A program made the translations under genes and the position numbers. A stretch of 64,000 nucleotides of DNA, taken from IMG/VR virus record IMGVR_UViG_3300050147_000079; one strand, written 5' to 3'. Below are positions 2,674 to 44,874 of the stretch, in pieces (the stretch's first letter is position 1; the number at the start of each line of letters is the position of its first letter). The notes below the pieces were generated by a model. It did not search any database. It was not told the DNA's origin and was given only the letters and a program-made list of their open reading frames with translations. The stretch comes from a virus.

Positions 2674-2711
2674 ATAGGGGGATGATCTCTCATCCCCCTA
2701 TCGTAGGTCAA
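2674..2711 (-). promoter_or_regulatory. Sigma70-type promoter with embedded 12-bp inverted repeat
   Basis: -35 TTGACC (plus 2706-2711); ATAGGGGGATGA / TCATCCCCCTAT stem with 4-nt loop over the -10 region. Confidence 0.75.
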
Positions 2712-2722
2712 CGCGGTCTGGT

Positions 2723-5700
2723 TCAGTCGCTTTCAGTGCTGAGGTCGCTGCGCGCACCAGCCCAGCCACAATCCAGGCACCTAGCTTTTGCATCATCGTC
2801 ATGCGCCTTGACGCTATGGCAGTAATGGTCGCCGGTGTTCACCATCAGCATTTGCTCAGCGGTAACGGCAACGTCTCGGCTACTGCACTCCGGACACACC
2901 AACCAACGCTCACCGTACGCATTTGTTTGTTCACTCATACAGCTCAGTACTCGATCCCGAGCTCATCCAGCAGGTCACGAGCTGCCTGCACTTTACCGCA
3001 CCACTCACCAATGTCGAAGGCATCGTCGTAGTTGCCGCCGCTGTAGTCGCACGCGTTGAAGTCTTCATTGTCAGAGGCGATCTTCAATGCGGCGAGCTTC
3101 TTTAGCCGCTCCAGCACTTCAACCGCCTTTGCAACAGTAGTGCCTTTGACGAGAGAGCGGACTTGGTCTTCGTTGGTCATGTGATTGTTCTCCAGTTGAA
3201 TCAATGAGGGGATGATACATCAACCCTCACCAATGGTCAACTTAGGTCATCGCACGATCAACGCTTGGTGCAAGCCCAGAACACTTCGTTGATGCCACAC
3301 TTGACGCAATGACCACCTTCGTGTTCGTATCCCTTCAACGGCTTGCTGAAGTCATGGTCGCAGTCCATGCGTTGGTCAAGGAGCTTGTTCAGCTGCACGG
3401 CCGCCTCACGGCGGGCATCTTCAGCAGCATGCACAACCTGTTGTTGCTGGTTGATCTGCTCGAGGAGAGTCATCACTTGCGTCCTTATTGAATCAATGAG
3501 GGGATGATACATCAACCCTCACCGGTGGTCAACGCAGTTGTGCGCAGCGATCAGCAGGCTCAGCGTGCCGCTAGCTGGTCCATCACCTTTCGCTGTACAA
3601 TCGCATACGCATTGGTGCGGGACATGTCGACTTCCTTCTTAGCGGCGTGCCATGCACTACGAACAGCGGCGACGCTGACACCAGCCTTGCGAGCCATCGT
3701 CTCGAACCTATCAACCTTACGCTTCTTAGGAGCCGCGGGGGCTGGGGCTCCCTCCCGATCGCCGCTAACGTACGGGTCACTGCGCTTCATTGCGCCTTCG
3801 AACAGGTCTGCTACTTTCATTGAAGTGGTCTCCTTGACTGTATCCCGCTATTTACGGGATAGTCACCGGAGATCACTTCACACGTGCAAAGTACACGATC
3901 ACGTATCGGTAACCAGAACCAACAAACCGGACATCATACGCAACAACCTTCCAGCCGCTTGGAGCGATGGAGCCTAGTTCACGCCAAGCGTTTTCGCCCG
4001 TCGTTGGGTGAGTGCAATCACCCTCCTTCGCGCGGAATTCGCGAAGGCAGACTAGGATCATGCCGTCTACCGATATCGCATTGCGTTCCGAGTGGAACAT
4101 CATCATGCGTGGCATGGCGCCGTAGTCAACCACAGCACTTGTCTGAGCGGACAGTACTTCGACTTTGGTTGACGAGCTCGTCGTGGCAGCTTGCGCGAAG
4201 CCAGCCAGGGCGAGCATAAGGGAAGCGATCAGCTTGTTCATATACGAACTCCTGAGGTAAAAAGGGGGGATGATAACACCTCCCCCTTCGTTCAGTCAAC
4301 CGAAGTCGAATGCCACCCGAACACGTGCCGTGCCTCGATGGCGAGCGTGCACTCCAGGTCACTGCACGAGCCGTCCAGCGTCTGCTGCCCGCGGATGTAG
4401 CGGATCACCACATTGGCTGTGCGCTCAACAAACGCGCGGAACTCAACGCCGTTCAGGTCGGCGAACTGTTTCACCTGCTCGTTCCACTCGGTGCAGGCGC
4501 CCAGCACCCACCGCCGCACTTGCTTGATCAGCTCGCTGATGTCCATGTTGCTTCTCTCCTTGTTTGACCTTGACCGAAGTATACTTCAGCTCAGCCAACC
4601 AGTCAACCTTGCTCTTCTGCATTGTGCTGGCCCTCAACCCGCGACAGCGTGAACTTCGTTGACCTCTTCGAACCGGCGCTGTGACAGGCAACCGAAGTGC
4701 ACATACACCCCGCCTGCAGGCGACGCCTTGCTCTCTTCGCGGTACTGATCGAACCAGCCAGTGCTGCGCAGTCCGCACAACTCACCACAGCCGGGACACT
4801 CCACCTTCTCATCAGCGGTGACGGGCTGACCGGTGAAGGCGGTGCCGACAAAGACGGGCTGGCTCATGTGTGCTCCTTGGTTGCTATGAGGGGATAATAC
4901 CTCACCCCCACTACTAGGTCAACGCTATCAAGCACCGATCTGATTGACGGCGAGCGTTGCGGCTGCGATGTAGTTGGCCGGCTCGCCACGCAGGTACATG
5001 TCCGTGACGCGGTCGGGGTGCTGCAGACCCATGTAGCGAATGATGCTCTTCAGGCCGCCGCCGGTGTAGGCGGTGCTGATGAAGTGGATCATGTTTGCGA
5101 ACGTGTGCATCTTGCGACTCCTGATTGCTTAACCAATGAGGAGAGTATCCCACCCTCCTCGTGTTTGGTCAACTGGTCACGTGTTGTAGATCGTCAGCTC
5201 CCACCCCTGCATGTGCGGGTACTTGTGGATGGACTCGGTGGCCGGCACGAACCGGAACGCTTCACTGGTGGCGTCCGCACGCAGCGCCCACACAACAGCC
5301 CGTCCGGTATTGTGGTTGACGATGCAGATCCCGTCGTCACACGCATCGTCGTAGATGCTCTCGAAGCGGTGGCCTGGCCGAAGCCCGAGGTCGCTGGCGA
5401 ACGCCGAAGCCCTCTTGTCGACCATGTTCCAGCTGACGCGGCTGGCGTCATACGGGTGCATCGTGAGGGTAGCCATCTCAGCTCTCCGGTTGTTGATTAG
5501 GTGAGGAGATGATACCTCGTCCCCTCATCTTGGTCAACGCTCAATACACCGAGCGACCAGCGTATTCGTTGTAGAACGACATCCACTCGATCGCGAACTC
5601 TTCGCCGCTGCCGTCGACCAGCAGGCCGAAACGCTTAGCGTATTCGTACGGACCTTCGCGGTCATACACTTCACGAATCGCCTCAACAGCAGCGTCGGTC

Positions 5701-6478
5701 GTCAGGTGAGCGCCTTCACAGATCAGGTCCGTGATCAGAGCTTCAACTTTCGGGAAGCGGGCCATCAGCTTGTCGTACATGGTTCGTGTCCGGTTGTTGA
5801 TTCAGTGAGGAGATAATAACACATCTCCTCGCTTTGGACAACTGGTCAGATACAGCGAACGACGTAGATCTGACCACCATCAACGCCGCACTTGGCAGCT
5901 TGTGCGAGATTGCCGTTGACAATCTCGAACGTATCGCCGAGGATCTTGGGGCCGTTGTCATCAGCCAATTCGATCGTTTGATCCTTCCATGCGACGCCGT
6001 CGCATTCACCAACGTATTCGCTGATCACGCGGATCAGCTCCGCTTCCGACCACTCAGTGACACTGACGGTGTTGTCATCACCGACACCCTCACCACCTTC
6101 GAACACGAAAACAGAAATCATTTGGATGCGCTCCGTTGTTGATTCAGTGGGGAGATAATACCACATCTCCCCACTTTGGTCAACTGGTTAGACCACAATC
6201 AACCGGTAGAAAAAGTAACCATCTGTCAACTCATCCTCGTTGACAGGAAGGAAGAAACCATTCGGAGTTTCGTAGAACTCCCACTCCTCCTCCTCAAACC
6301 CCTCCTTGATGAAGGAGAGAGCTTCCTCCCGAGAGAGGAACTTGTCAACATCACCGATCGTGTCGGACGGAGTCTGTTCTCCACAATTGACGATGTTTCC
6401 AGTGACCACGATGAACATTTCTGTTCTCCAATTGATAAACGACAAGGAGAGTGTCTCATCTCCTTGTCGTTTGGTCAA
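2723..6478 (-). CDS. Array of small early hypothetical proteins (2723-2938 and 4634-4867 Cys-rich zinc-finger-like; 2944-3204; 3258-3515; 3873-4241 with signal peptide; 4292-4546; 4928-5110; 5177-5476; 5541-5780; 5846-6166; 6188-6478)
   Basis: Tightly spaced minus-strand ORFs, most preceded by an SD and a TTGAC promoter cassette; some true starts are probably downstream of the ORF-track starts. Confidence 0.65.
3196..3523 (-). repeat. Two identical 36-bp promoter cassettes (3196-3231 and 3488-3523)
   Basis: TTGAATCAATGAGGGGATGATACATCAACCCTCACC occurs twice, flanking ORF 3258-3515. Confidence 0.9.
3560..3820 (-). CDS. Small hypothetical protein with MKVADLFE N-terminus, probably late-expressed
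   Basis: Preceded by TAAATA (plus TATTTA 3849-3854) rather than a TTGAC cassette. Confidence 0.6.
   Translation of the reverse strand: MKVADLFEGAMKRSDPYVSGDREGAPAPAAPKKRKVDRFETMARKAGVSVAAVRSAWHAAKKEVDMSRTNAYAIVQRKVMDQLAAR
6146..6183 (-). promoter_or_regulatory. Hairpin-embedded sigma70 promoter
   Basis: -35 TTGACC at 6178-6183, 17-nt spacer, -10 TATTAT at 6155-6160; 11-bp stem 6146-6156 / 6165-6175. Confidence 0.8.
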
Positions 6479-6484
6479 CTGTTG

Positions 6485-7033
6485 TCAGGACCACAGACCC
6501 GACTTGCAGTTCTGGTGGTACGTCGAAGCACCGGGGGCGGAGAGGCCCAGTTGACTCATGAACGCTGCGACGATCTCCTTGCGCGGCTTGCCCGCCATCG
6601 TCTTGTAGATCGCCACCGCGCGATCCTTCTTCGATGCGGCCTTGACGGGCGCTTCGGCGACGGCAGGCTCGACGGCGGGAGCGGCCTTGGGTTCGACAGC
6701 CGGCTGAGAAGCCGTCAAAACCGGCGTAGAATCGACGATCACAGGCTCACTGGTGTCCTCAGCCGTCTCCGCTTGGCAAACGGCTTCCAGGAGCTTCATG
6801 CCGCTGTCTTCGCCCTTCTTCATCAGGCGGGAGGCGTGCTGCGGGTGGATCGACATCGTCACCGCGCCGCCCTGCTCCATCAGGATCACGTACGGCTCCT
6901 TGCTCGAGTCCTTCATCACGCCCTGCTTGTCGCTGAGCGCGTAGAGGCGGAACACCTTGACCGACTCGTCGCGCTGACGCACTTCAACGAGACGATCCTT
7001 CAGGGGGGCGAACAGAGCTTGCAGTTGCGACAT
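6485..7033 (-). CDS. Hypothetical protein, paralog of 22958-23626, with shared C-terminal helical domain
   Basis: Likely start MSQLQ at 7033; MKDSSKEPYV..IHPQHASRLMKKG aligns with MKDASKSAYV..VHPTAAQRLLKRG. Confidence 0.75.
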   Translation of the reverse strand: MSQLQALFAPLKDRLVEVRQRDESVKVFRLYALSDKQGVMKDSSKEPYVILMEQGGAVTMSIHPQHASRLMKKGEDSGMKLLEAVCQAETAEDTSEPVIVDSTPVLTASQPAVEPKAAPAVEPAVAEAPVKAASKKDRAVAIYKTMAGKPRKEIVAAFMSQLGLSAPGASTYHQNCKSGLWS

Positions 7034-7056
7034 GATGTGTGTCCTTGCTTGGTTGT

Positions 7057-9819
7057 TTGACAGTGAAGCCAGTATCCCACCAGCCTCACATTTGGTCAAC
7101 GCGGTTGACTGTAAGGCTCAACCGTTGTCAGGCGAAGTCGAATGCGGAGAGGCAGATGCTCGGGCAGTCGGAACGGAACACCGAGTAGGTGCCGACGTCC
7201 CAGGCGCCGCCGATCGCGTAGAGGCGGGCTTCGCTAGCAGACGCTTCCCACGAGTGGTGAGTGACGTCGTTGCGGATGATGAACTTGTTCATGCTCATGC
7301 TTAGCTCCTGTTGTTGAATCAGTGAGGAGATAATACCACTCTCCTCATATTTGGTCAACAGGTTAGTTCGCTTCGTCCAACTGCGAGACGAACTCGTCAA
7401 CAGCGCGACGAGCATGGATCAGATGCGAGTGTGCATTCGTGCCGAAGTTCTGATCCGTTGACTTTGCCCACTCCAGTAGGCGCGGATCGTTCAGCATCGC
7501 TTCCAGTTCGTCAACGAAAGCGGTCGCTTCTTCCGAGCTGTCGAATTTGTCCATGTGCATGCTCCTCAGCAGTTGATGTGGTACATCATAGCACCACATC
7601 AACTGCTGGTCAACTGGTCAGAAGTTCAGCATGTCGTTCACATGCTCTTCCAACAAACCGTTTTTCTGGTTGTCATAAGCTTGGTAGTGCTTGAGAATCG
7701 CCTCCTGCACTTGTTGTTCAGTCATGTCCTGTTGTTCGGCTGTCTTCTTGATCAGTTCGTCGGGAATCGTGAGAGTGATGATCATTTGGATCTCCTACAG
7801 TTGTTTAACGACAAAGAGATAATAACACAATTGACCAAACACGACAAGTGGGCAGGTATTAACCTGCCCACTCAGATGGTCAACTGGTCACATCGTCCAG
7901 TAGCCCTCCATGCTCGGATCGGAGGCGCGGCTGCCCCGTTGCGACTTGCGGATCTGCACATCAGCGCCGTTCATCAGGCTCTTCACCGTGATCATCACGT
8001 CGGCTGTCTGCCACGCGCTGTACTCGGCGACCACCCACTCAGCAGCTTCCGACTCCGACGCATCCACCTTCTTCAGCACCTTCGTGCGGATCGTTTTGGC
8101 GACGCGCTCCGTCTCGAACGTCTGCTGGCCACTGCTCGGCGACTTCATCCGTTGCAGCGTTTCGGTGTTGTAGATGACGTAGGACACTTCGGATCTCCGT
8201 TGGTTGACAGTGAAGCCAGTATCCCACAGGCTTCACCGTTGGTCAACAGTGGTCAGAGCCAATCAACAGGACCGATGATGTCGACGCCCTCGTCGCTGAT
8301 CGTCACTTCAACAGCATCCTCCACATCATCCGAACACGTGACGCACTTGATCTCAGTGTCCAACGCGTCGTCAGACAACAAGTTCAGATGGTCACGCAGT
8401 TGACGAAGGGTGGTTGCGGAGAAGGTTTGCATTTTCGTTCCTCTGGTTGACAGTGAAGCCAGTATCTCACAATACTGGCTGTTGGTCAACGGATCAGTTG
8501 CCCGCAAAGTTCAACTGTAGTACTCATCCTTCTTGCCCAAGAAAGACAACTGTTGATAATGCCAGTATCCAGCACAACAGACATGTTCACACAGCCACAT
8601 GCCCGTCTGACCTGAGTTCTTCCTGTCACGGAAGTACTTAACAACAAATTGTTCCATCATGGTTGGTCCCAGTTGGTTGACAGTGAAGCCAGTATCTCAT
8701 AATACTGGCTCTTGGTCAACTGGTCACCACCACCCACGCATGTTGGCGACATGGGCAAGGATCAGCAGGCCGATCGTCACCGCGGTCGCGATCTTGCCGT
8801 TGTGGCGGTAGACCGTGTAGAACCACGTATTCGGCGTTTTCTTGGAGCTGAACGTGTAGGTGTGGCGATGACGGCGATACGACGCTTCAATCGCCGTATA
8901 CACCCACACACCAGCGAGTGTGGCGACGATGAGGACGACGATGAACATCCAACCACCGCCCATCAGACCTTCCCAGATCGCCGCTTCGAGCGGATTGCGG
9001 TACACCACGATCGATTGCATCATTACTCCTGAATGTTGGCGTGACGGATGAGATTCTCTGCGATCAAGCGTTCAATGACAACACGCTCAATTGCGAAAGC
9101 AAACTCAAGTTGAGATGGACTGAGTCTCGTGCATCCAAACACCTCACGGCCAACGCGCGCCGCATCAGTTGTGGTGATGACGGACGGGAGATGTTGTTCG
9201 GTAGGCATGGTGCTCTTTCTCGTCAGTGAGGAGAGTATCGTCTACTCTCCTCACTTTGTCAACTGGTCAGCTTAGAACGTGTGGACTTGCCCGTCGATCA
9301 CCACACGCTTGATGCTGTCTGCCTTGATCGTGCGAATGATCACCTTGTTTTCCAGTCCGCCCTGTTCACTTTCTCCGTGATCAGCAGGCATGCCTTCGAT
9401 TTCCGCCTTGTTGATCGGACGCACGCCGTGCAGGTAGTGAGTCTTGCCCGACTTCAGGAAGATCACTTCAATGTACGTTTCACCGTGGTGCTCGATGATC
9501 GGCGTGCCTTCGACGCGAGTGCCCCATGCACGTTCGCTCAGTTGGAACGATGCAGGATCCTTGCCCTCTTGACGCAGACGACGTTCCACCATCGCACCGT
9601 AGGCGCTGCCCGACTTGTTCGAGAACACCATCACGTTGCTGCCGATCGTCACCTTGCGGATCGCACCCTGCATCGGGTTCTTCTTGCCGCCAGTCAGCTT
9701 CGGAATCGTTTCCGTGTCGATGCTGATGAAGTTGGCGCCGTTGACGTTGCTGAACAGATCGCGGATTTGCTTGGACATTTCGGTTCCTTGCGTGTGTTGT
9801 TTGACAGTGAAGCCAGTAT
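7057..9819 (-). repeat. Five identical 19-bp cassette heads TTGACAGTGAAGCCAGTAT (7057, 8204, 8447, 8677, 9801)
   Basis: Exact repeats in intergenic gaps, each followed by a spacer and GTCAAC (minus-strand -35). Confidence 0.9.
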
Positions 9820-12800
9820 AACAGAAACCGGCTGCTTGGTCAACGTGGGCGGAATTGTCCGCCCATTTCAGTCATCGACAGTTGACAAGACCGCTCGTCT
9901 CAGTTGACAGTGCTTCACCGATCGCTTGAAGCAGTCCACGTTGAATGCGTGCTTGACTTCGACGGTTGCCCGTATAGCGATTGACACGACGACGAAAGTT
10001 CGTCATAGCACGTTGACGTGCAGACGCATTACGCCACGATGACGAGTCATCACTGGCGATCGCCTGCAGCAGTTCAGCGCGAATCGGCTCGATTGTGCCA
10101 CCATACGCCATGATGACGTAGCCGAGAGCCTGCACTTCGATCTCGTCCTCCGTGTCGATCGCCGCGATCGCCTTCTGCACGTAGACGGGATCCTTCAGGC
10201 GTTCAGCGTACAGCTTTACAGCCTTGTTCGCTGCCTTCTTTCCGTCGTTGTCGTAGATGTCATGGAGGAGCTGACCGAGAATCGCCTCCTCCATAGTCAG
10301 TTCGACGTCACACGGCGTATCGCCCTCCATCACACCTTCACCCCACCAACCCACGATTCACCACTCCCTCTTCACGATGATTGCAATCATCATCGCAATG
10401 ACGGGAGAGAACAACAGGGCAACCTTGAGATAGATCATGATGTGTACCGAGAATGTTTACTAGTGGGATTATTGTAACAATCATCCCACTCAGATGGCAA
10501 CGTGGTCAGGTGGACGAATCATCCACTTCGAACACGATCTCCACCCCCTCACCGAACACTTCCTTCGCCCTGTTGACAGCGAATTCCTTGAGGTCGTCCG
10601 TGTCGCCGTTGAACTCACCCTGATGGCGCCCTTCCTTGATCACGTCTTCGTACGCCTTGTCGATCACGGCATCCTGCAGAGCTTCCACCTTGACGTGGAG
10701 GTCAGGATCCTTCCGTTGCACGTCGAAGTCATCGAAACCGTCCTCTTCGCCGTTGAAGTAGCAGAGGACGGAACAGCCGTTGTAATTGGCCTGATATTCG
10801 ATTTTGATCTTGGTCAGCATATTACGTTGCTCCAATGCGTTACGGTGAGGATACTATAACGCATCCTCACCAAGACGGCAACCGTTGACTTCTTAGATGC
10901 TGAGCGTATACGCTTTGCTCAACCGCTCATTCACCTGATCACTGACAACCTTCATGCGAGTGAGACAGCGTTCTTCGCTGACAGTCACCTCGTAGTACTC
11001 CGTCCAGCGCAGGTAGCGTGCGATCTCATGCTGCAACCACCGCTTCTCAGCCAGGTCTTCTGCGATGCGCCGCACTGCTGCTTCGTCGCTGACGTCGATC
11101 AGCTGCGGCAGCCGGTCTTTGATCAGATCGTACATCAGCACGGTCGGTCTCCTCAGAACTCCACCGCAACGTACACGTGGTCGTTGATCGTGACGGCGTA
11201 GCGTGCTTCACCGTCCGAGATCACGTCGAGCTCCTCCTTATCCAGCAGCGCGGTGATCTCTTCCGAGGTGCTCATCACCGTCATATCGTCACCTTCGGAG
11301 TGCTCGTAGACGAACGAGCGAAACGCGTGCAGGTCAGCGGCGCACACGCCAACCAAACCCAACGCGTTGGCCCAGCTGCCGTTGGTGGAGAGGATACAGA
11401 ATTGACTCATGATGTGCCTCAGAGCAGAATGTTTACTAGTGGGATGATTGTAACCCCATCCCGCAGCCGCGTCAACCGAAGTCAGTCTTGCACTTCACAT
11501 TCTCGGATCGTGAACAGCAGCGACCAGTCGTAGAACTCACGACCCTGCTCGTACACATACACCAGCGTCACGGTTGCTGCATCTTCAGGCTCACGCGCGG
11601 GCGATACGGTGTCATACCCGTTGTCTTGCGTGAAGCCGCCGCCGTCGCGCTCTTCGGTGATCATTTTCATCACCGATTCCATCGAGCGGTAGACGCCGAG
11701 ATGTGATTCAACTTCGCCGCCGTTGACGGAGAGAACGAAGACCTTAGCCATGCTGAAACCTCATGTGGCTGTTACTAACTGGTGGGATGATTGTAACATC
11801 ATCCCACCGCAGCGTCAACTGATCACTCGTCAGCGTCGGCGATCATGTTGTCGATGTTCATCTCTTCACGCTCACACTGCACATGCGTGTAGAACGAATT
11901 GTTGGGCCTGTTGTACAGATAGCACCAGCCATCGTCCTCGAACACTTCCCAGCCATCCTTCTCAGCAATCGGCTTGACGTTCGGATCGCGGACGTCAACA
12001 GGGAAGTCGTGGTAGGAGAAATCGTCGTCGTGCTCGCTGATCAGACGCGTGCCGAACGTCTGCTCGAAGTGCTCAACAGCGTCGTCGTTGCCAGAGCCAT
12101 ACGTCGAGACGCAGCCGACGAGATCGTTGTTGAACGAGACCCAGCAGTACGAGCCACCAGCATTAATGCCGACCGACTCTGCGTTCTCGAGGGTGATCTC
12201 AGTATCCTTCATGTCCTCGTCGCTGAGGTACGTCGCGAACTTGGCCAGCACTTGCTGACGATTGATCTGAGTACCACGAGGAAGGATGTAGCAGGTGGAC
12301 ATTTCAGTTCCCGATTGCGTTACAGTGAAGATACTATAACGCAACCTTGCCACAACGTCAACTGGCCAATTGCTTGATGTGCGTAATCAGCTTACCGAGC
12401 GACTTGCGATTCCTGCACACATATTCAGCCACATAATCCACCCAGCCATCATCACAGTACCAAGTTTCAACAGGGGCTTCAGAAATCAGGCGAAGGATGT
12501 TGCGCCGAGCGAGGATAGGCGTGCCCTCAAGGAGCGCTTTGGTCTCCTTGTCCGTCATGCCGTCAGCCGCCTCATACAAGTCGTCAGTGATGCCAGGAAA
12601 TTGGTACCGAGCTTGTCGTCAACCAAGCTCGGTAGCGCGATCAACCAACTGGTCGATGATGTGCTTGACGGTCACGTGTGCTCCAATGCGTTACGGTGAG
12701 GATAGTATCTCATATCCTCACCACAACGTCAACCGAGATACCGGAGGTGCTTCTCCAGGAAAGCGATCGCCTCGTCCAAGGCATCTTCATCCCACTTGTC

Positions 12801-15573: not shown

Positions 15574-15873
15574 TTACAGGATCCTGTCAAGCATCCTGAT
15601 GCCACCAGCCTTGTCGTGCTTCGGTTGGCAGGTGATGCAGTACATGCAACGCATGCCGATCTTCTTCATCGCCGCTACACGCAGAGGATTGATCGATTCA
15701 CCGCAATCAAGACAGTCGTCGAGCTGAGGACCGTCGATCAGCGATTGCGACGCTCTAATCGCGTTTTCAGCGAGGATAAGCGCGTGTTCTGCTTCTGCAT
15801 CAGGATTGCCAGTGTAGCCGGACATGTTTGCGATTTGGAAATAGCGAATGGGGAGATCATAAGACCTCCCCAT
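15574..15873 (-). CDS. TraR/DksA-type C4 zinc-finger protein
   Basis: CLDCGESINPLRVAAM..CMYCITCQ matches CxxCGxxIxxxR...CxxC; two acidic residues in the N-terminal helix region. Confidence 0.75.
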   Translation of the reverse strand: MGRSYDLPIRYFQIANMSGYTGNPDAEAEHALILAENAIRASQSLIDGPQLDDCLDCGESINPLRVAAMKKIGMRCMYCITCQPKHDKAGGIRMLDRIL

Positions 15874-15912
15874 TCAGTTGTCAACGAGAGTCTTTGTAGA
15901 CTCTCAGCTTGA

Positions 15913-16494: not shown

Positions 16495-16587
16495 GGTGCA
16501 GTTCCTTGCAGTTGTTTGCGGTTGATGTCGTTTGTTCGACGACAGAGAGATAATACCTCTGCTGCCGTCTTTTCGCAACAGGAGTGG

Positions 16588-17611: not shown

Positions 17612-18401
17612 TCGTCCCGTTCGTCGTCGCCGATGTCGTCATCCGGCTCCAGATCCGTGTTGTAGAGGTCGTCGTGATTTTCGACGACCAGCTGGATGTC
17701 GTCCCAGTAGACGATCGTGTCCCAGCCCATCGAATCTTCGCTGATATCCATCAGCTGGTCAACGGCACGTTCGGCGTCAGAGCGCGCTTGGTGAGCGGCA
17801 CGCATTTCCTCTTCCGACTCAGCGTCGATGGCGGCTTCGTGCACCGCCGCCATCAGGTCCTTCAGAACGGCGCCGACGCACTCCATCACGGAGCGGCGGT
17901 GGCCGACGAGGCCGACGCACTTACGTCCGCACATGCCGCGGCCGCTGTAATCGCCGCGGAAGCGAACGCCGTCCTGGCCATCTTCAGCGGCGAGCTTCAG
18001 CATTTCAGCGAGGTTGAACTGGCTCATTTGGATTACTCCGGTTGCTTGTGTCAGTGAGGAGATAATACGATATCTCCTCACAAACGTCAACTGGGCGGTC
18101 ACATGACCTTGAAGATCGCTTCGTACACCACTTCGCCGGTGGCGAACGTGAAAGCGCGCACTTCGAAGCCGCCAGTGGAGGACGAGTACCACTCGTCCGT
18201 GTTGCCTTCCGAGTGCATCTTCTCCCAGACAGTGTCGAACAAGCGGTCGACACAGCTCTTCATCTGGTCGATCGTCGGCACTTCATAATTCGTGAAGACC
18301 CACGTCCAGTTGAGGTGCTTCATCACCGATTCGATCTTCTCCCACTGCACGCGGTCCATCAGGCGGCTGCGAGTCTCGGTGTACGAGAGGATGTGGCTCA
18401 T
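17608..18401 (-). CDS. Two hypothetical proteins (17608 to about 18028, 18099-18401)
   Basis: ORFs with SDs; the first has a YSGRGMCGRKCVG motif and an acidic tail. Confidence 0.65.
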
Positions 18402-18450
18402 TTCGGTTGCTCCGAACAGTTGCGATGAGGGGAGTATACATCAAAGAAAA

Positions 18451-18587
18451 GAAGGTGCCACCAGGAGGATTTGCACTTGCCTTGTTTAGTTGGCCAAAGT
18501 AGGCGGCCTTCCGGCGCACTACTCCACTCCAACGCCCTGCACCGCTTTGCGTCGACGCACCGCGGGGAACCGAACAATGGCACCTTC
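18451..18587 (-). ncRNA. Structured RNA unit closed by a 10-bp stem
   Basis: GAAGGTGCCA (18451-18460) pairs perfectly with TGGCACCTTC (18578-18587); no convincing ORF. Confidence 0.45.
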
Positions 18588-18696
18588 ATAAACAGTAAAG
18601 CAATAAGAACGGCGGAGGTGGTTCCAGGCGGCCGCCTGCCACTACGTCACTTTGAGCGCACAAACTCCAGCGCACCGTTTCCCATCACACGCCACA

Positions 18697-18776
18697 CGCC
18701 ACAAGAGGATTCGAACCTCCCAGCTGAGTGCCCCCAGCCTGTGAACCACACCCCGGCGGACCTTTCCGGTGTGACG
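18697..18776 (-). ncRNA. Degenerate or non-canonical tRNA-like element without CCA
   Basis: Acceptor CGTCACA / TGTGGCG and T-arm GGAGG-TTCGAAT-CCTCT; D and anticodon arms are not canonical. Confidence 0.5.
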
Positions 18777-18791
18777 TGATCTTGCATTCTG

Positions 18792-18867
18792 TGGTGCCGG
18801 CTATCTGACTCGAACAGATGACCTACGCTTTACAAGAGCGTTGCTCTACCAACTGAGCTAAGCCGGC
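18792..18867 (-). tRNA. tRNA-Thr(TGT)
   Basis: 76-nt cloverleaf GCCGGCT..AGCCGGC-A-CCA; anticodon arm ACGCT-CTTGTAA-AGCGT. Confidence 0.95.
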
Positions 18868-18877
18868 ACTGATTCAA

Positions 18878-19067
18878 AAGATAGATTGAGTGGCACAACG
18901 CGGTCGCCTGCCGCCAAACCTCACCTGGAATATTCGGATACCACTCCGTGCTACCAGGCCTGTTGGTTTGTCCTCTGACTCAGCTGGGTTGACGGGCCCG
19001 TCTTCCTAGCCGTAGATCCGCCTGATTGTGGTTGCAACCAAGCATCCTGTGCCACTCAATCTATCTT
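18878..19067 (-). ncRNA. 190-nt structured RNA closed by a perfect 20-bp stem
   Basis: 18878-18897 is the exact reverse complement of 19048-19067; internal stems such as CAAACC/GGTTTG and CCTGG/CCAGG. Confidence 0.6.
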
Positions 19068-19076
19068 CGTTACGTC

Positions 19077-19223
19077 TAGTATCCTATGATCATCGCCGTT
19101 CGACAACAGCCACACATGCTTTCAAGAATCACACCCTATCCATTTATGGAATCAGGTGCTATCCGTACCGGCCGGCGATGCCGCCCACATGCAGCCGCCG
19201 ACGGCGATGATCATAGGATACTA
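19077..19223 (-). ncRNA. 147-nt structured RNA closed by a perfect 23-bp stem
   Basis: 19077-19099 is the exact reverse complement of 19201-19223. Confidence 0.6.
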
Positions 19224-19317
19224 ATTTTCAAAGAACGATGCTGGCAGGCCCACACCCGACGCCACCTCCAGCTGGCTTAGCGCTCTCACGCCAGCCCCCA
19301 GACTTCACTACCTTCAC

Positions 19318-19360
19318 ACGGCGAAGCGTATCTTATCTCATCTACGCTTCGCCGTCAACA
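19318..19360 (-). promoter_or_regulatory. Hairpin promoter upstream of the tRNA/ncRNA cluster
   Basis: -35 TTGACG; perfect 13-bp stem 19318-19330 / 19343-19355. Confidence 0.7.
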
Positions 19361-20751: not shown

Positions 20752-20856
20752 GATTTGTTTACTAGTGATTAACGATAGGATTACTATAACTGAAATCCTA
20801 TCGTTAATCTAGTAGAGAGCTTACGAAGCGTAAGGTTTCTCTACTAGTGGATCAGC

Positions 20857-24932: not shown

Positions 24933-25001
24933 CTCCTTGTGATGCAGTTGTTATGGTGGAGTGACTATCCCATCACTCCACCGTACACTCAACGGGGCAG
25001 A

Positions 25002-25912: not shown

Positions 25913-27099
25913 TCAACGCTTCCCAGCGTGTTGCATGACGAGCTCAATGTATTCGCTCATCTGCATGCTAATGACTTGACAGCAGTGAATGCTCTTCAAG
26001 CTTCTGATGCCGTAACCACCGCTCTTGTTGGTGTGGAGCGGTGAATCCCAACCGAATTCAGCATGTGCCTTGTTGGGAGCGACGCTCCAAGCACCATCAA
26101 AACAATTAACAGTGCTGATGTTCGTGATGCTGACAGCCACCCCGTCTTCAGTCGGGTGCAATGCAAGGAACGGGTAGTATGCCATCGCTCAGGGCTCCGT
26201 CCAGCCGACAGCAACCGAATGCTCCAGGACCGGCACATCCGCCTCAAGCTCCGGGAACATCGCGTACACCTGCTCATGCGTTAGCTTCGAGCCGCGCATG
26301 TCACGGATGATGAAGTCGCCGGTGCGCTGGTCGATGTACAGCTGAACGTACTTGCAGGCCGGCTCACCCAGCCAGCGGGTGTGCTCAGTCATCGCGGCCT
26401 TGTGGATTGCCGTAGCGGCTCGGATGAACTCGCTACAGCAAAACCACCCGTTTTGTGGGTGGTGGCGCATGATCAGTGCACCGTGCCGTGCAGGGTGCAC
26501 GTGTCGCACTTGCCGTCGCAGCCGTCCGGTTCGCCGAAGAGCGAGTCGTCGCCCATCAGCATGAGGTCGGCGAGCATGTCGGCGGTGATGCCTCGATCCT
26601 GCAGGCCGTTGGCGACGAGCTCTTGGGCGGCGATTGCGGCCTTGTCCAGCTGATCGATCGGCTTGCGCAGAACTTGGACATGGGTGTGCTCCTTTCGGTG
26701 AGCGGTTGTGTGAATCAGTGAGGAGATAGTACATCTCCTCACACCGTTTTGTCAACAGGTCTTCAGACGAACGAACGCGTCGCCATCCTTCGACAGGCCG
26801 GTTTTGATGAACCGATCGCCGAAGTACTCCTTGCAGAGTTCATTGAAACGTGTGAGCTGCGTGGAAGAGGCGTCACCCATCACCTTAATGCGCCGCCGCA
26901 TTTTATCGCCCGACAGGTCGTTGTAGTAGGGATGCCAACGGTCAACCGGATCCCCCACCGCCATGTTGTACAGTTTCAAGACCGCAGGGCCGTCCTCCGG
27001 ACGCTTGGCAGGCCGCCCCGCGGGGATGAACAGCTGCCCGTTCACAGTGATCGCGGTCATGTTAAAACCTTCGATGCCTTTGACCTGAACTTCAACCAC
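25913..27099 (-). CDS. Small hypothetical proteins (25913-26185, 26189-26470, 26473 to about 26680, 26752-27099)
   Basis: Coupled minus-strand ORFs. Confidence 0.55.
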
Positions 27100-32462: not shown

Positions 32463-32522
32463 GATGTGATCCCTTTATAGTTTGCGGATGAAGCGTAGTA
32501 TATCCGCAAAACGTATTAGACG

Positions 32523-32738
32523 TCAACCGGGGACCACTTCCGTAATCCATTCGCCCTTGACAGTGACTCCAGCATCAGACAGGTAGTACCAATGACCGCT
32601 GTTGTTGCTTATCACTTTGCCGATCCGGCCAAATACGGGGATCAGTTTTGCAGCTTTACATGGGCAACTTGGCCGGTTTGCACGAACAAGTTGCCCAACA
32701 GATAGAGGATGATTGATTGGCTGTGTTATCATAGCCAC
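32523..32738 (-). CDS. Small hypothetical protein (SH3/KOW-like size), probably late
   Basis: TAAATA immediately upstream (plus 32739-32744). Confidence 0.5.
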   Translation of the reverse strand: MAMITQPINHPLSVGQLVRANRPSCPCKAAKLIPVFGRIGKVISNNSGHWYYLSDAGVTVKGEWITEVVPG

Positions 32739-32741
32739 TAT

Positions 32742-34505: not shown

Positions 34506-34515
34506 AGTACCTCCA

Positions 34516-35939: not shown

Positions 35940-35967
35940 ATACGAAACCACCGGGAGGAGAGACGTC

Positions 35968-36680: not shown

Positions 36681-36707
36681 CAACTCCACTATAATCTCTT
36701 CCCCTAT

Positions 36708-37630: not shown

Positions 37631-37646
37631 TGTGGATCTCCCTGTA

Positions 37647-37670
37647 CAGGAGGGCCCGAAGGCCCTCCTG
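37647..37670 (-). terminator. Hairpin with UUCG tetraloop
   Basis: 10-bp stem CAGGAGGGCC / GGCCCTCCTG just downstream of the AAA gene. Confidence 0.6.
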
Positions 37671-37674
37671 ATTA

Positions 37675-38757: not shown

Positions 38758-38852
38758 TGCAATCCTTTGTCTAGTTGCGGATCAACCGCGGGATGGGTCG
38801 TTAGAAATCAATACGGTGACGATATCTCATCACCGGTTGATCGTCAACAGGG

Positions 38853-39752: not shown

Positions 39753-39781
39753 ACAGCCTTTGTAGTAATGAACATGCGGTG

Positions 39782-39820
39782 ATTATAAACGAAAAAGGGG
39801 TGTTGATCAACACCCCTTTT
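39782..39820 (-). promoter_or_regulatory. Perfect 28-bp palindrome acting as a terminator and carrying the -35 of the CDF promoter
   Basis: AAAAGGGGTGTTGATCAACACCCCTTTT; TTGATC-17-TATAAT. Confidence 0.7.
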
Positions 39821-39821
39821 T

Positions 39822-40235
39822 CTACTCAGCCAACATCGTCCCGCGACATTTGGGAGATCCGCAATGACACAACTGCAAATCACCAGGCTCCGCATTCAGC
39901 AAGTTGTACTCGATGTACACCTCTTCTCCAGCCAGAATTTGTCGTCTGGCACGAAAGATGATTGCCAACTGACCGCCACGCGTCACTTCTTCGCTGTGTG
40001 CGTTAGGATCGCACGAATGGTTGCAGTACCGCAGGTCATTCTTCCCATCGATGTACAGCCCATTGGACAGCTGCCACAGATACACACAGTCACTTGAAGA
40101 GTGTGCGACTTGTTGTTGTGTCAACAGCGGCCCTGTGTAGTATCCGATCACATTGCCACGATTGATGTCTGCGACAGCAAACAATCCACGACCGTGAATC
40201 TTTGATCGTTTGACGACTACCTTCGATGTATTCAT
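39822..40235 (-). CDS. SET-domain protein with post-SET zinc motif
   Basis: SKIHGRGLFA, RYCNHSCDPNA, GEEVYIEY and CHCGSPKCRG motifs. Confidence 0.9.
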   Translation of the reverse strand: MNTSKVVVKRSKIHGRGLFAVADINRGNVIGYYTGPLLTQQQVAHSSSDCVYLWQLSNGLYIDGKNDLRYCNHSCDPNAHSEEVTRGGQLAIIFRARRQILAGEEVYIEYNLLNAEPGDLQLCHCGSPKCRGTMLAE

Positions 40236-40281
40236 CTTGATCCTCTTGAGTTGACGCTAAGAGGTGCCCCTGGGGCACCTC

Positions 40282-41322
40282 TTAGTACGTGAACATAGTG
40301 ATCAAAGATGCGATAATGACAAGAGCGATGGCAATCATGAACCAAGCGATGTCGCCACCATCCCACGAATTGTGTGTTTCGCTGATCTTCACGGAACGAC
40401 CGAAGATGTCACGCTTTTCCGAATCGTATTTGATGACGGTGCCGGTATAGCGCGCGGCAAAGTAACGGACGAATCCGAGACCAATAGCCAGAACGAGCAG
40501 ACTACCAAACACGTGAACAATGACGCCACCCATGTAGTTCCACACGATCAGAGCCATTGCCACCATACCCACAGGAGTCTTCACAAAGTCGTTGACAGCA
40601 ACCCCAACTTCCTTGGCTGCACCACCGATCATCTTGCCGATCCGCTCACCAACATTCAACCAAGCATCCGCTTTCTTGGCATTTTGCTCGCTGGCCGCGG
40701 CTTCAGCCACGATTTGAAGCGCGCCAGCATCCTTAACGGATGCTTTGTCCGCGACGGCCTTCAGCACTTCAGCCTTTTCAGCCTCTGACAGTTTGCTGAA
40801 GCCAGCTTGACGAACAGCGTCTGAATCGAGGCCTCCGGCGATCGCCGTGAGGCTTGCTGTGACCAGGATGAGAGACGTCAGGATGTTGCGGATGTTCATT
40901 TGGTAGTCCTTTGCCAAATTTCAATGTATGGGATCAGCTCGTTAGGTGTGTAATCCGCCAATGCGGCGTCATACTCAATCATGTCGTCTGCCACCACAGC
41001 GGCTTCGGACTTGATGAGCGCATCATAGCCGTTTTCTTTTGCGTTGTCAAGCGCTACAAAGACAAGCATTTTCAGATCAGGGTTCTCCATATAGCTTGAA
41101 CCCTTTCAATTTGCACTCTTCAAATGCTTGATCAACATTGGTTGCGTCCAATTGCACCTTGTTGTGCAAGCTGACAGTACACCAGCCAGTCAAGTGTGGG
41201 CGGAGATGCTGATTGCAGTACACCCAAACATTCTCTCCGAACACTTTCGTGTCTTCAGTCAGCTTCTCTTCCACTTTAGCCTCCAATGCCGCGGCTGAGC
41301 AGCATTTGACACACATCACCAA
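40282..41322 (-). CDS. Membrane protein (40282-40917) and two small hypothetical proteins (40896-41090, 41077-41322)
   Basis: Signal peptide and TM segments in 40282-40917; coupled ORFs. Confidence 0.6.
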
Positions 41323-42565
41323 CAGTCACACAGCGTTCAGCATCTTCGTCAGAGATTTCGATGCCGAAATCGTCCTCGAAGTACATCACCAGTTCAACCA
41401 GATCGAGAGAATCTGCGCCGAGGTCAGCCACGAACGCAGTGGCTTCATTGATTTGGCTAACGGGAACACCCATCATGTCGCTGGTGATGAAGCGTGCACG
41501 ATCCAAGAGCGGAGTGGGAATGATGTTGTTCGCAGCAGGAGCAGTGCCTAGTTGAATATCCGGAGTACCAGTGCCGTCACCGTACTTTTTCGGCAGCTTC
41601 TTGCGACCATCGTCGCGACCTTCGCGGTAACCTTGTTTGTACTCTTCAGAATCAGCCCACAAGTCTGCATTCACCGACTTACCGAACGCCTGCTTGCCAC
41701 GACCATCCTTGTAACCAGCTTGGTAGCCGGTCTTGAACGCTTGAGTGGCACTTGCGTTCGTTTGTTCGGTCATCACCGGAGTGGTAATCACAGCTTCACG
41801 TTCGATCAGTTGGCGCGCTTCACCGTCCAGCTCACCAATCACCTCATACGAGCAGGTACGGCCCTTGGCGAAGTTGTAGTCAGTCGGAATTGCAGTGATG
41901 TGTGCGGGGTTGATCTTCAGGATCAGCACACGGCCCTCGCCGTTGTAGTAGTGGGGCAGGTAGGCGTGCGAACAGAAGTGCAGACCAGACGAACACGTGT
42001 TCTCGTTGGCTTGGTCACACTGCTCCCGGGCAATCGACGTAACTTGACCGATCGCATGTTTGGTTGCTCCATCGTAGAACGACAGGTAATCGCTGCGGAC
42101 GCGTTTGTATGCGATCAGGCAGCCATCTTCTGTGATCGTGACGTTGTTCGCTTGCATCCAACCATACACCGCCTGAATCGTCTTCGGGTTCGGATTCTGG
42201 TACAGGTTGCCCAGGAAGTTCGACATTGGTTCCACATCGAAGCCGTCACGCATCATTGCGATCATGTGATCGACGGCGGTGTTGTGGATCGGCTGACCAC
42301 GGAAGTAGACAGCAGCAGCTTCCGTGTCCACAGTGATCAGACCGTTGGCCATCTTGGAGAGTGCCAAGGACACGTTGATTAGGTCAGGGATGTCTGCCCA
42401 TTGCTTGGCGCGGACCTTGTCCAGCACCAATGCGAAGTTCGGATGTTGATCGTTCAGTGTGAACTGCTTGCCGTTGATCACCAGGGCAGCCCCGTCACGA
42501 GTCAGAATGTAACTGTTCATTATGTCGTTACCTTTTTCAAAAATGAATGGGGTAAGTATATCCAC
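41276..42565 (-). CDS. rIIB: rIIB-like protein fused to a C-terminal acyl carrier protein domain
   Basis: rIIB motifs (NLxx[24 protein letters not shown]); last ~75 aa have the ACP motif [33 protein letters not shown]; directly downstream of rIIA. Confidence 0.85.
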
Positions 42566-42579
42566 TTACCCATGATCGA

Positions 42580-44874
42580 TCAACCGTCAATCGCGTTAAC
42601 GTACTTGATGATCTTCCGGATCTGCATATCGTCAGCATATTTGAAGTTGACGAACGTGAGCATTGGATAGTGGTCAACCACGCTCTGCCACTTACTGGTT
42701 AGGGTGACGTGACGCATCACACGATCACCATCTGCAATCCTCAACTGTGCAATCACTTGGCGAATGTGCTCAGCGGGGTGATTGACAGTCGCGTCGCCAG
42801 CAAGCTGAACAATCTCAGCCATGAGTTCTTTGAACGGACCATCTTGCAACCCTGTGCTCAGACTGTCCCAGTTCTTGACCATGTAGTTGATCAGAGGGCG
42901 ACCAAGTTGGTCAGAAACAGAGTCCACGATGTTCTTAGCGAACAGCCGATCGTCAACGTTGGCGTCGTCAAATGCATCTCGGACGTACGTATACACGTCT
43001 ACCCACTCTGCATCATCTTGAATCTTCTTCAGGTCTTTGTCGTTGAGTCCATACAACTTTTGGTCGACTGAGACTAGACCGAGAGCCCGTGCAGATTCCC
43101 ACAACTCATGGATACCGTTGAACTCATAACCATCCTTCTGAGCAGCGTACCGAACAATCGGTACATAAATGCCACCGTCTTCGAAGTCGATCACTTCCGT
43201 GTCCCACGTATTGCGACTGAACTTGCGATGGAGACCAGTCTCACGGCCGTAGTAGTTGTGCTTCTTGGTGAACCCAGTCCACACGTACACTTCGCCTGGC
43301 TCACGCTTGGTGTACGTACGGCTACTACGAACCGTCACAACTTGAGGCAGTTCGGAAACGTAGGTGAGATCGATCCCTTCAAATTGGTCAACAACAAGTT
43401 GGGCTTGCTTGTCATCTACAGGGCCACGCTTGGTGTGTGAACCGATCAGCAGTGCTTGTGCACGCTTGCCATTCACCTCGCCCTGCTTGATCAGATACTC
43501 AGTAACGCGCTTGGACACGTTGCCAGAGCCAACATCGTCGACGATCAGATGCAGGTTGGCGTGAACACTGAACTCCATCTTTTTGGTGAGATTGCTCGGA
43601 TCCCAAACACCCAGAGTGTGTTGTTTGTAGCCACTTCTACGTGTACGCTCGAGGCCCATCCGCACAAGACGGACTTCAGTCAATTTGCTGAGGTCCAGAG
43701 TCAGTTCATCAGGAACCACGCGGTCGTTGTACTGAAACGGGGCAGTATCCTGCATCTTTTTGAAGATGTCGGAGAAGGTGCCTTTGCGGAATGTATACTG
43801 CTGACGCAGCATCATCGCCTCCCACATATTCTTGCATTTGTCAAATTCGGACTGGAACGACGAACGCATTTCTTGGGCGGCCTGCTGCAGGTGGTTGATC
43901 AGGTTGGTCACCGTTGCTGGCACGTACGACAGCGATTCACGGGATGCAGCAACCTCAACCTTGCCGATTGGCACATACAGATCGAGGTCGGTATTTGCCA
44001 GCAGGGCAGCTTCATCTTTGAGACCATACTGCTGCAGTTGGTAGGTGTCGATAGGATACGACACAAAGCCCTGCACCACGTGCGGGCCATTCATGTCCGC
44101 ATAGTAGTCAGTGGAGCGAATGCGCCACGAATCGCCCGTCACAGTATGAACCAGCGAGTATGGAGAGAATCCGTACGGGCCGATCACCACCGGTTTCGGA
44201 TCGAAGTACATCAGCGCTTTCCGCGCTGCATCAACAAACTTGTCGGAATCGGACGGACGAACGGAAAGGGAAACGGTGACGCCGTTCGGATCTTCCGTCG
44301 GCTCAGTGCCCATCAGGGCAACGCTCGGCATTCCTTGTTCGTTCTTGAAGCACGTGTAGAGAGATCGGATCCCTTGGTGACGCGACTCAACCATGAACGA
44401 CGTGGTGTAGCTGAACGGAGACTTGCTACCGAGACCCAGTTGGCCGATGAAGTCGTTACTTGAGGTTTTGGTCGACTCGAAGTACGTGTTGTAGATGCCA
44501 CCCTTCTTCTCCCAGCCACCCATGCCGGAGATCAGACTTTGCTCGGCACCTTCTTCCAGGGACACTTTGGTGCCGTCATCGCGCAACCAATAGCCACGCA
44601 CGTCGAAGTCACTCAGGCCAGTGCCAAAGTCTTTGACGTAGAACGTGGGATCGAGCGTGGTCGGCAGACGAATTTCAATCGGCTGAGTGGTGCCTGCAGC
44701 AACGTGGCTGTCATGGGCGTTGCACGACAGCTCACGGATGATCGCCAGGATCTTGTTGGCATATAGACCACTCGACAGAATGTCAAACGCCTTTGCAGTG
44801 GCCTTGATCGTGAAACCAGCTTCTGCGCCAGTGTTTCCGCGTTCCAGATGGATGTCGTCTTGTGCAACGAGCAT
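42580..44874 (-). CDS. rIIA: rIIA-like protein (N-terminal GHKL ATPase)
   Basis: AFDILSSGLYANKILAIIRELSCNAHDSH, VKDFGTGL and IGQLGLGSKSPFSY motifs. Confidence 0.9.
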   Translation of the reverse strand: MLVAQDDIHLERGNTGAEAGFTIKATAKAFDILSSGLYANKILAIIRELSCNAHDSHVAAGTTQPIEIRLPTTLDPTFYVKDFGTGLSDFDVRGYWLRDDGTKVSLEEGAEQSLISGMGGWEKKGGIYNTYFESTKTSSNDFIGQLGLGSKSPFSYTTSFMVESRHQGIRSLYTCFKNEQGMPSVALMGTEPTEDPNGVTVSLSVRPSDSDKFVDAARKALMYFDPKPVVIGPYGFSPYSLVHTVTGDSWRIRSTDYYADMNGPHVVQGFVSYPIDTYQLQQYGLKDEAALLANTDLDLYVPIGKVEVAASRESLSYVPATVTNLINHLQQAAQEMRSSFQSEFDKCKNMWEAMMLRQQYTFRKGTFSDIFKKMQDTAPFQYNDRVVPDELTLDLSKLTEVRLVRMGLERTRRSGYKQHTLGVWDPSNLTKKMEFSVHANLHLIVDDVGSGNVSKRVTEYLIKQGEVNGKRAQALLIGSHTKRGPVDDKQAQLVVDQFEGIDLTYVSELPQVVTVRSSRTYTKREPGEVYVWTGFTKKHNYYGRETGLHRKFSRNTWDTEVIDFEDGGIYVPIVRYAAQKDGYEFNGIHELWESARALGLVSVDQKLYGLNDKDLKKIQDDAEWVDVYTYVRDAFDDANVDDRLFAKNIVDSVSDQLGRPLINYMVKNWDSLSTGLQDGPFKELMAEIVQLAGDATVNHPAEHIRQVIAQLRIADGDRVMRHVTLTSKWQSVVDHYPMLTFVNFKYADDMQIRKIIKYVNAIDG

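Follow-up and report, generated by a model that had tools for sequence, protein, structure and literature searches.

Promoter-overlapping hairpins in the early gene array of a large uncultured phage and their likeness to PeSL cassettes

Along a 64,000-nucleotide stretch of viral DNA, IMG/VR record IMGVR_UViG_3300050147_000079 (the whole of which is called the window here), many promoters in an array of small early genes carry the -10 box in the loop of an inverted repeat, raising the question of why a promoter should be built into a hairpin, and of whether the hairpin acts in DNA or in RNA. The genes of the window lie almost all on the minus strand, GC content is ~55%, and the array of small early genes extends over ~1-33 kb. 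Identical sequence was found in leaf-litter metagenome contigs of up to 205-206 kb, which, together with the absence of a close isolate, identifies the source as a large uncultured phage: a megablast of 20 kb of the window against GenBank phages gave 0 matches, the rIIA protein is at most 32% identical to that of any isolated phage (tblastn), and a peptide-pattern scan of IMG/VR for rIIA found no relative. The hairpins probably belong to composite promoter/stem-loop cassettes of the type known as PeSL (promoter early stem-loop), and would here act in read-through RNA.

Promoter sequences are abundant in this DNA. The motif TTGAC-N16-18-TANNNT occurs at 29 sites against 3.5 expected, all except one on the minus strand, where an earlier note made from the letters of this stretch had counted at least 20 such promoters with an inverted repeat, and a general promoter scan of the first 20 kb yields 56 promoter-like sites against 8.8 expected. 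Hairpins were counted in 48 minus-strand sigma-70-type promoters between 1000 and 33000, taken from our own scan, with a stem defined as pairing of the spacer with the region from the end of the -10 box onward. A perfect stem of at least 8 bp brackets the -10 box in 18 of these 48 promoters and one of at least 6 bp in 26, and perfect arms of 10-16 bp are present in 11. The earlier note had proposed a comparison with shuffled controls, and the excess withstands it: mononucleotide shuffles of spacer and downstream region produced 3.8 stems of at least 6 bp and 0.16 of at least 8 bp (maximum 2), while swapping downstream halves among promoters produced 7.2 and 1.24, respectively (maximum 5 for the longer class, 300 trials). 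Folding energy averaged -12.1 kcal/mol with a promoter's own 3' half against -7.0 kcal/mol with foreign halves (p = 1.5e-8), and minimum-energy folds enclose the -10 box with at least 6 pairs in 36 of the 48. Pairing between the spacer and the 3' arm is thus specific to each promoter's own halves. Covariation was judged by such partner swaps, not by column-wise counts, as the register of the stem shifts by 1-3 nt between copies. All 12 individual hairpins that had been listed from the letters were found where they had been placed, with the stem lengths given.

The design is not genome-wide, as had been claimed, and is limited to the early small-gene array (~2.6-33 kb) plus the promoter of rIIB, which is encoded at 41276-42565 on the minus strand beside rIIA (42580-44874, minus strand). 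The 23 promoters beyond 33000 show no inverted-repeat enrichment and no advantage of own over foreign partners. Among them is a second promoter family, at 49-57 kb on the minus strand (51096-51124, 53009-53037, 55257-55285 and 56009-56037), with good -35 and -10 boxes and no hairpin; its spacer is conserved and falls into two sub-types, and this conserved spacer may be a factor-binding site of middle-type promoters.

Each cassette occupies a gap of 50-90 nt, in which the stop codon of the upstream gene is followed by ~4 nt (often CCAG), the -35 box, a 17-nt spacer, an extended -10 box, a C/T-rich discriminator, a leader of ~20 nt and a ribosome site. The promoter consensus reads G-TTGAC-c, 17 nt, TGg-TATaaT, then CTCCTCACTG, and this last element is the consensus of the 3' arm, which starts just past the -10 box and runs to about +4. 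Positioned on the promoters as a set, the 5' arm covers ~-27 to -15 and the 3' arm ~-8 to +5, with a median of 11.5 pairs, and the loop of 5-12 nt contains the TG together with bases one to four of the -10 box; the geometry in a related contig, L015, is identical. The majority of stems are bulged and imperfect. Between the -35 region and a GTCAAC-like sequence in the leader, a lower helix of 5 bp or more is formed in 20 of the 48 promoters against 6 expected (maximum 12), and in 12 of 23 in L015; where it occurs, the result is a two-tier structure from ~-38 to +16 (~40% of sites) with 16-18 pairs in total. The 20 nt upstream of the -35 box are 44% AT against 46% overall, so that no AT-rich tract is found there. 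The individual elements, all on the minus strand and referred to in the text by their upper coordinate, are as follows.

2674-2711 (-): hairpin promoter; -35 TTGACC, -10 GATCAT in the loop, perfect 12-bp stem at 2674-2701
3205-3240 (-): hairpin promoter; imperfect stem TGAGGG.../...CCCTCA, ~15 pairs including G.U
3497-3532 (-): hairpin promoter; repeats the core of the 3240 cassette exactly over 36 nt, the pair flanking one open reading frame (ORF)
3841-3861 (-): 7-bp hairpin with TAAATA in the loop, without a sigma-70 promoter; an isolated case
4262-4299 (-): hairpin promoter; the only one with a T5 run behind the 3' arm (terminator-like)
5138-5172 (-): hairpin promoter; loop holds -10 GATACT
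5807-5841 (-): hairpin promoter; perfect 8-bp core GAGGAGAT
6146-6183 (-): hairpin promoter; 11-bp stem at 6146-6175, A-to-G and T-to-C relative to 18090, lower helix GTTGA/TCAAC
6437-6478 (-): 14-bp hairpin behind TTGACC; degenerate -10 GACACT in the loop
7323-7358 (-): hairpin promoter; one side of the joint in contig X19 is at the edge of its -35 box
7567-7613 (-): hairpin promoter; 16-bp stem of unrelated sequence, -28.6 kcal/mol
7847-7883 (-): TTGACC followed by an 11-bp hairpin (stem 7847-7872) with TAATAC in the loop; a second promoter follows at 7847
8210-8246 (-): hairpin promoter; 3' region as in 8489, spacer pairing shifted; the other side of the X19 joint
8457-8489 (-): hairpin promoter; 9-bp stem at 8457-8480 plus lower helix GTTGAC/GTCAAC
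8687-8719 (-): hairpin promoter; paralogue of 8489
9225-9262 (-): hairpin promoter; 13-bp stem at 9225-9255
10462-10500 (-): hairpin promoter; stem AGTGGGAT
10844-10881 (-): hairpin promoter; stem GGTGAGGAT
11441-11475 (-): hairpin promoter; stem GGGATG
11781-11818 (-): hairpin promoter; 11-bp stem GGTGGGATGAT
12695-12732 (-): hairpin promoter; 10-bp stem GGTGAGGATA
15846-15884 (-): hairpin promoter; 10-bp stem, with a separate 7-bp hairpin just upstream of the -35 box
16538-16578 (-): hairpin promoter; bulged stem, 14 pairs
18054-18090 (-): hairpin promoter; 11-bp stem GTGAGGAGATA
19318-19358 (-): hairpin promoter; 13-bp stem at 19318-19355 of unrelated sequence, starting within the -35 box
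20768-20811 (-): 16-bp hairpin, stem 20767-20809, TATAGT in the loop, weak -35 TAGATT
24955-24992 (-): hairpin promoter; 10-bp stem GGTGGAGTGA at 24955-24982, -35 TTGAGT
26718-26755 (-): hairpin promoter; 10-bp stem at 26718-26742
32481-32526 (-): hairpin promoter; 9-bp stem at 32481-32510, shifted downstream (3' arm +2 to +10)
42550-42583 (-): rIIA-rIIB intergenic promoter; 8-bp stem at 42550-42571, then a T-rich tail; the relatives' hairpin is in another register

Most stems in this list are variants of a single purine-rich/pyrimidine-rich theme, that of the 3' arm consensus, with the spacer changing to match. The claim that the stems are unrelated in sequence therefore holds for about ten of them, which differ wholly (7613, 19358, 20811, 24992, 32526, 42583, 7883, 6478, 12361 and 16578), and fails for the majority. 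Within the common theme, the pair GTGAGGAGAT/ATCTCCTCAC at 18090 has become GTGGGGAGAT/ATCTCCCCAC at 6183, a matched double change. Promoters 8489, 8246 and 7099 possess one common downstream sequence, with which their spacers pair through different, shifted parts, indicating that the spacer has adapted to a fixed 3' partner. Ten contigs carrying the same 168-amino-acid protein as the window (L003-L012) are 99.98-100% identical to it and uninformative on compensatory change. Variant bases at 9829-9846, in the spacer of promoter 9843 (contigs X16, X19 and X20), lie near contig ends, are not clearly compensatory and were not used.

The hairpin is not tied to the -10 box in every case. Intergenic gaps of 25 nt or more number 35 in a survey from 19778 down to 1, and in 22 of these the -10 box of the best promoter lies inside the strongest local hairpin; comparable hairpins stand just upstream of the -35 box at 9871, 15912 and 7127, around a degenerate -10 box at 6478, and around TAAATA at 3861. 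This last instance had been noticed earlier as a late TAAATA within a hairpin loop, and the 7-bp stem is indeed present, yet as a general trait of such motifs it does not hold, since 1 of 9 TAAATA motifs is so placed. In the rIIA-rIIB gap the window has the -10 box in the loop, whereas the relatives L013 and L014 have a co-varying hairpin between the -35 box and the -10 box. Hairpins outside the usual register and the variants of the rIIA-rIIB gap show the hairpin to be an element in its own right: it behaves as an intergenic element that usually, not always, overlaps promoter sequence.

Which molecule folds can be approached through the two strands. The sense strand folds at -15.6 and the antisense strand at -13.3 kcal/mol, a difference of 2.3 kcal/mol, with sense the better in 28 promoters and antisense in 8 (Wilcoxon p = 6e-5); G.U pairs make up 57 of 431 pairs in the sense strand against 23 of 409 in the antisense strand (Fisher p = 2e-4). 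In sense-strand stems, A.C mismatches are avoided and G.U pairs tolerated, and random 43-nt segments of the same region have no strand asymmetry. Such a bias speaks for a structure of the sense strand alone, most simply RNA, and disfavours a cruciform or a protein-bound palindrome, because both would treat the strands alike; it points to selection on sense RNA rather than on duplex DNA. Of the three options offered earlier, namely promoters gated by a cruciform or by supercoiling, structure-specific shutoff by a phage protein, and processing signals in read-through RNA, it is thus the RNA signal that is favoured by the sense stability and by the tolerance of G.U and not of A.C, the other two not predicting a bias.

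The U-tract of an intrinsic terminator is absent: the 8 nt after the stem contain a mean of 1.6 T (20%), which equals the strand background in both the window and L015. A scan for canonical terminators over 1-20 kb found 8 sites against 15.1 expected from shuffles. Hairpin-plus-T-run terminators do occur on the minus strand at 39791-39822 and ~63290-63309, each overlapping or directly before a -35/-10 pair, so that the missing U-tracts do not reflect a phage-wide lack of terminators. Efficient intrinsic termination at the hairpins is unlikely, except perhaps at 4262-4299 and 42550-42583, and with ~30 co-directional promoters and no excess of terminators in the array, transcriptional read-through is expected.

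Comparison with other phages was made possible by the 168-amino-acid protein (9272-9778, minus strand), to which no function is assigned and which belongs to a family of 591 clusters on large metagenomic contigs of up to 348 kb, making it a handy marker for a clade of uncultured large phages. In L015, with a GC content of 60% and a copy of this protein 65% identical to that of the window, stems of 8 bp or more surround the -10 box in 9 of 23 promoters, where 0.15 would be expected. The arms are positioned as in the window, the stem sequences are different, and the advantage of own partners is 6.2 kcal/mol; the strand bias recurs, with G.U in 22 of 202 sense pairs against 9 of 197 antisense pairs and a difference of 2.5 kcal/mol. 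The signal is weaker in L019 (3 of 19 promoters with stems, 0.06 expected), a few stems are found in L018, and L016 and L017 have no stem enrichment above chance. The loci surrounding rII in L001, L013 and L014 contain few promoters and no array. Judging from these contigs, the hairpin-promoter design is a trait of part of the clade.

Gene content around the cassettes also varies. The window and L015 have about ten genes in common, in patchy and partly transposed order. A freshwater contig, X19, joins position 8247 to 7365, both the 5' edge of a -35 box, and contig X16, likewise from a different metagenome, parts from the window twice, at 7100, which is also the edge of a -35 box, and at 7799, where a promoter lies on one side and the ribosome site on the other. 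At 3205-3532 a single ORF is flanked by two cassettes with an identical 36-nt core. Contig breaks at cassette edges suggest variant gene orders, and these observations fit recombination at the cassettes. A further joint, 18860/14175 in contig X15, was rejected; it links two tRNA genes and probably comes from another organism.

Early sigma-70 promoters with an associated stem-loop have been described as PeSLs in the T4-type phages RB49/phi1, T4/PST and KVP40/nt-1; in RB49 and phi1 they precede small genes of hyperplastic regions, and recombination takes place between the copies (PMC2839356; PMC4122927). Their stem-loop lies most commonly between the -35 box and the -10 box or overlaps the latter, and their stems are rich in G and C runs with G.T pairs and have terminator activity in reporter assays, halting read-through (PMC2839356). 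The phage cassettes are best read as belonging with PeSLs, the closest known system, whose architecture they share: a strong sigma-70-type early promoter with a stem-loop, often over the -10 box, in a short gap before small genes of a variable region; stems made of G runs and C runs that include G.T pairs; a cassette that takes in the upstream gene's stop codon; and probably a location at sites of gene gain, loss or exchange. The analogy, which had been drawn earlier, is closer than was then implied, since an overlap with the -10 box is one of the two most frequent stem-loop positions listed for PeSLs (PMC2839356). There are differences as well. A single register prevails here, against five positional subclasses among PeSLs; the present cassettes are without an AT-rich tract upstream of the -35 box and without a U-tract after the stem; a second helix formed from the -35 box itself is frequent; and the phage is distant, with the divergent rIIA noted above and a GC content of 55%.

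Other systems resemble the cassettes in part. The RNase III sites of T7 and T3 (R0.3, R0.5 and R1.1 among others) are likewise intercistronic hairpins of the sense strand, within a long early transcript that the host polymerase produces, and single-site cleavage by RNase III leaves 3' hairpins that shield the RNA from 3'-5' exonucleases (PMC1540722). They share with the present elements a two-tier helix with an internal loop (at ~40% of sites here) and a protective 3' hairpin, here predicted, but are promoter-free, conserved in sequence and about two turns long, against 11-18 pairs here. An inverted repeat also takes part in promoter recognition by the N4 virion RNA polymerase. In N4 promoters, which a single-subunit polymerase of the phage recognises on extruded DNA, the stem has 5-7 bp and the loop 3 nt, and specific bases are conserved. 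This analogy, also proposed earlier, does not hold, because the promoters here have a canonical -35 box and extended -10 box of sigma-70 type, loops of 5-12 nt and variable stems. Intercistronic stem-loops lacking a U-tract are likewise found as 3' barriers of the repetitive extragenic palindromic (REP) type in bacterial operons, where they can block 3'-5' exonucleases and make the levels of adjacent genes independent. REP elements are, however, a sequence family without promoters, whereas the cassettes contain them.

Taken with these comparisons, the observations are best accounted for by composite promoter/stem-loop cassettes of PeSL type placed before most small early genes, with a hairpin that acts in read-through RNA and with cassettes that serve as recombination seams, a reading to which we assign a probability of roughly 0.6. 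At the level of DNA, each cassette would be an ordinary promoter of the host RNA polymerase. The transcript of the embedded promoter would start where the 3' arm ends, or slightly before that point, and so be without the hairpin, whereas RNA reading through from upstream promoters on the same strand would carry the entire hairpin. In that RNA the hairpin would be an intercistronic signal, either a barrier or processing site that leaves a protective 3' hairpin on the upstream message, or an attenuator, and each small gene would thereby become its own unit. The dominant register may be explained by space alone, the spacer and the discriminator being the only free bases outside the coding regions, both hexamers and the promoter's own mRNA. 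Similar cassettes would at the same time offer seams for the gain, loss and movement of genes. Most likely, then, the hairpin marks, protects or attenuates read-through early transcripts while the cassettes double as recombination seams, and we infer that it works as a processing or stability signal, or as an attenuator, and not as a terminator of the classical kind. No RNase III, RegB-like nuclease or recombinase was revealed when ~45 of the larger ORFs of the window were scanned with Pfam and PHROG.

Several points weigh against this account. Start sites, and with them the hairpin-free nature of the promoters' own transcripts, are placed solely by the usual 7-nt distance from the -10 box. 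The median helix of 11-12 pairs, or 16-18 with the lower helix, is shorter than the two turns usual in substrates of E. coli RNase III, and without a U-tract the terminator activity of one RB49 PeSL is not simply transferable. G.T is the least harmful mismatch in single-stranded DNA too, so that the strand bias excludes a one-strand DNA hairpin less well than it does a cruciform or an operator, and a register so tightly kept could also stem from some coupling to the function of the promoter. The evidence for recombination, finally, comes from single metagenome contigs of low depth.

The rival explanations divide according to the molecule in which the hairpin acts. A role in RNA of a simpler kind would make the hairpins factor-independent terminators or attenuators of the upstream gene, overlapping the next promoter merely to save space. 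They begin ~10-15 nt past the upstream stop codon, T-rich tails follow at the two sites excepted above, the sense-strand bias suits any role at the RNA level, and the stem-loop of PeSL211/210 lowered lacZ expression to a degree similar to that of rrnB T1 (PMC2839356); the background T content behind the stems, the shortfall of consensus terminators relative to shuffles, and the canonical terminators used elsewhere by the phage (39791-39822 and near 63300) nevertheless make this unlikely. Were the structure instead formed in DNA, supercoiling would extrude a cruciform or a hairpin of the non-template strand, removing the spacer and exposing or hiding the -10 box, and the promoters would sense the superhelicity of the injected genome. 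The register relative to the -10 box is very tight and kept in two phages, perfect arms of 10-16 bp exist in 11 of the 48 promoters, and AT content within the promoter peaks in the loop, a composition that favours extrusion of a cruciform. A cruciform, however, requires both strands, and antisense hairpins are 2.3 kcal/mol weaker, with A.C avoided and G.T tolerated in the sense strand; most stems are imperfect and bulged with loops of 5-12 nt, features that strongly disfavour extrusion in vivo; and some gaps hold such hairpins outside the promoter. A gating role for DNA structure is accordingly judged improbable.

Less probable still is that the repeats are operators, palindromes to which a dimeric protein, from phage or host, would bind across the -10 box and start site so as to shut off or activate the early promoters. 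The half-sites of the dominant family, GTGAGGAG...CTCCTCAC, have centres ~19 bp apart over -10/+1, the classical place for a repressor, and the outer GTTGAC/GTCAAC repeat is conserved, but the halves co-vary rather than each conforming to a consensus, 10 or more stems are unlike in sequence, the spectrum of mismatches differs between the strands, and relatives retain the pairing and not the sequence; sites so diverse could not be read by one protein. An equally slim chance attaches to single-stranded recombination structures like the attC sites of a cassette system, or to neutral quasi-palindromes produced by template switching in repeated cassettes, even though structure rather than sequence is conserved, folding is strand-biased, single genes are bracketed by cassettes and the breakpoints of variant contigs lie at cassette edges. 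Those breakpoints are at the -35 edge and not within the stem, the seams are explained by ordinary homologous recombination between similar cassettes, and no tyrosine recombinase or integrase was detected in the Pfam and PHROG scans, which covered ~45 larger ORFs of the window in a genome of at least 205 kb. Template switching, for its part, would perfect both strands equally and leave no G.T bias.

The preferred reading, cassettes whose hairpin acts in read-through RNA, can be extended in a direction that we hold only tentatively, as possible but doubtful. The whole promoter, from -38 to +16, may be a two-tier RNA processing signal built from its own -35 box, spacer and discriminator and cut 3' of the hairpin. 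If so, the cut would yield a downstream message whose 5' end is nearly that of the embedded promoter's start site, a gene's mRNAs would be reduced to one monocistronic form, whether they had started locally or far upstream, and a 3' hairpin would remain as protection on the upstream fragment. Such an arrangement would amount to a DNA signal and an RNA signal overlapping by design within 55 nt, an overlap kept across a clade of large soil phages.

Elements of this kind have been described before, as PeSLs, and the finding refines a known picture rather than surprising. It extends promoter/stem-loop cassettes from T4-like coliphages and vibriophages to distant, uncultured, GC-rich, large soil phages, and adds evidence that goes beyond the PeSL papers: compensatory change in the arms, the same register in two phages with different stems, and the strand bias towards sense RNA. 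For the present group the label of promoter-terminator may be wrong, the hairpins being without the U-run of an intrinsic terminator. The array would offer ~30 natural, compact, insulated expression units with graded stems, which also mark the variation in gene content between related phages.

Besides rIIA and rIIB, the window codes for an AAA ATPase, a helicase, HNH endonucleases, two tRNAs and numerous small ORFs without a family match. T4 core structural or replication genes were not found inside the window, most early ORFs have no match in Pfam, and an Rfam search returned the two tRNAs only. A full-length SmpB, the partner protein of transfer-messenger RNA and unusual as phage cargo, is encoded at 47-496 on the minus strand (Pfam PF01668, E = 7e-50). 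The C-terminus of rIIB is an acyl-carrier (PP-binding) domain, a fusion that also occurs in three relatives (L001 12388-13623, L013 12402-13598 and L014 12368-13597). An early protein at 2093-2653 (minus strand) possibly contains the C-terminal domain of ribosomal protein L7/L12, a weak match below the Pfam cut-off (E = 1e-3); a gene of the relative L019 that may be homologous (8294-8686) has a precomputed Pfam match to Ribosomal_L12. A small early protein at 15574-15873 (minus strand) has a weak resemblance to a DksA/TraR-type zinc finger, also below the cut-off (E = 2e-3), and its counterpart in L015 is 78% identical; if real, such a protein could act on host RNA polymerase at promoters with a C-rich discriminator. 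Between promoter 19358 and the next ORF, at 18430-19360 on the minus strand, lie 961 nt without called genes that contain a tRNA-Thr, and a peak of depth over this interval in freshwater runs is due solely to the tRNA.

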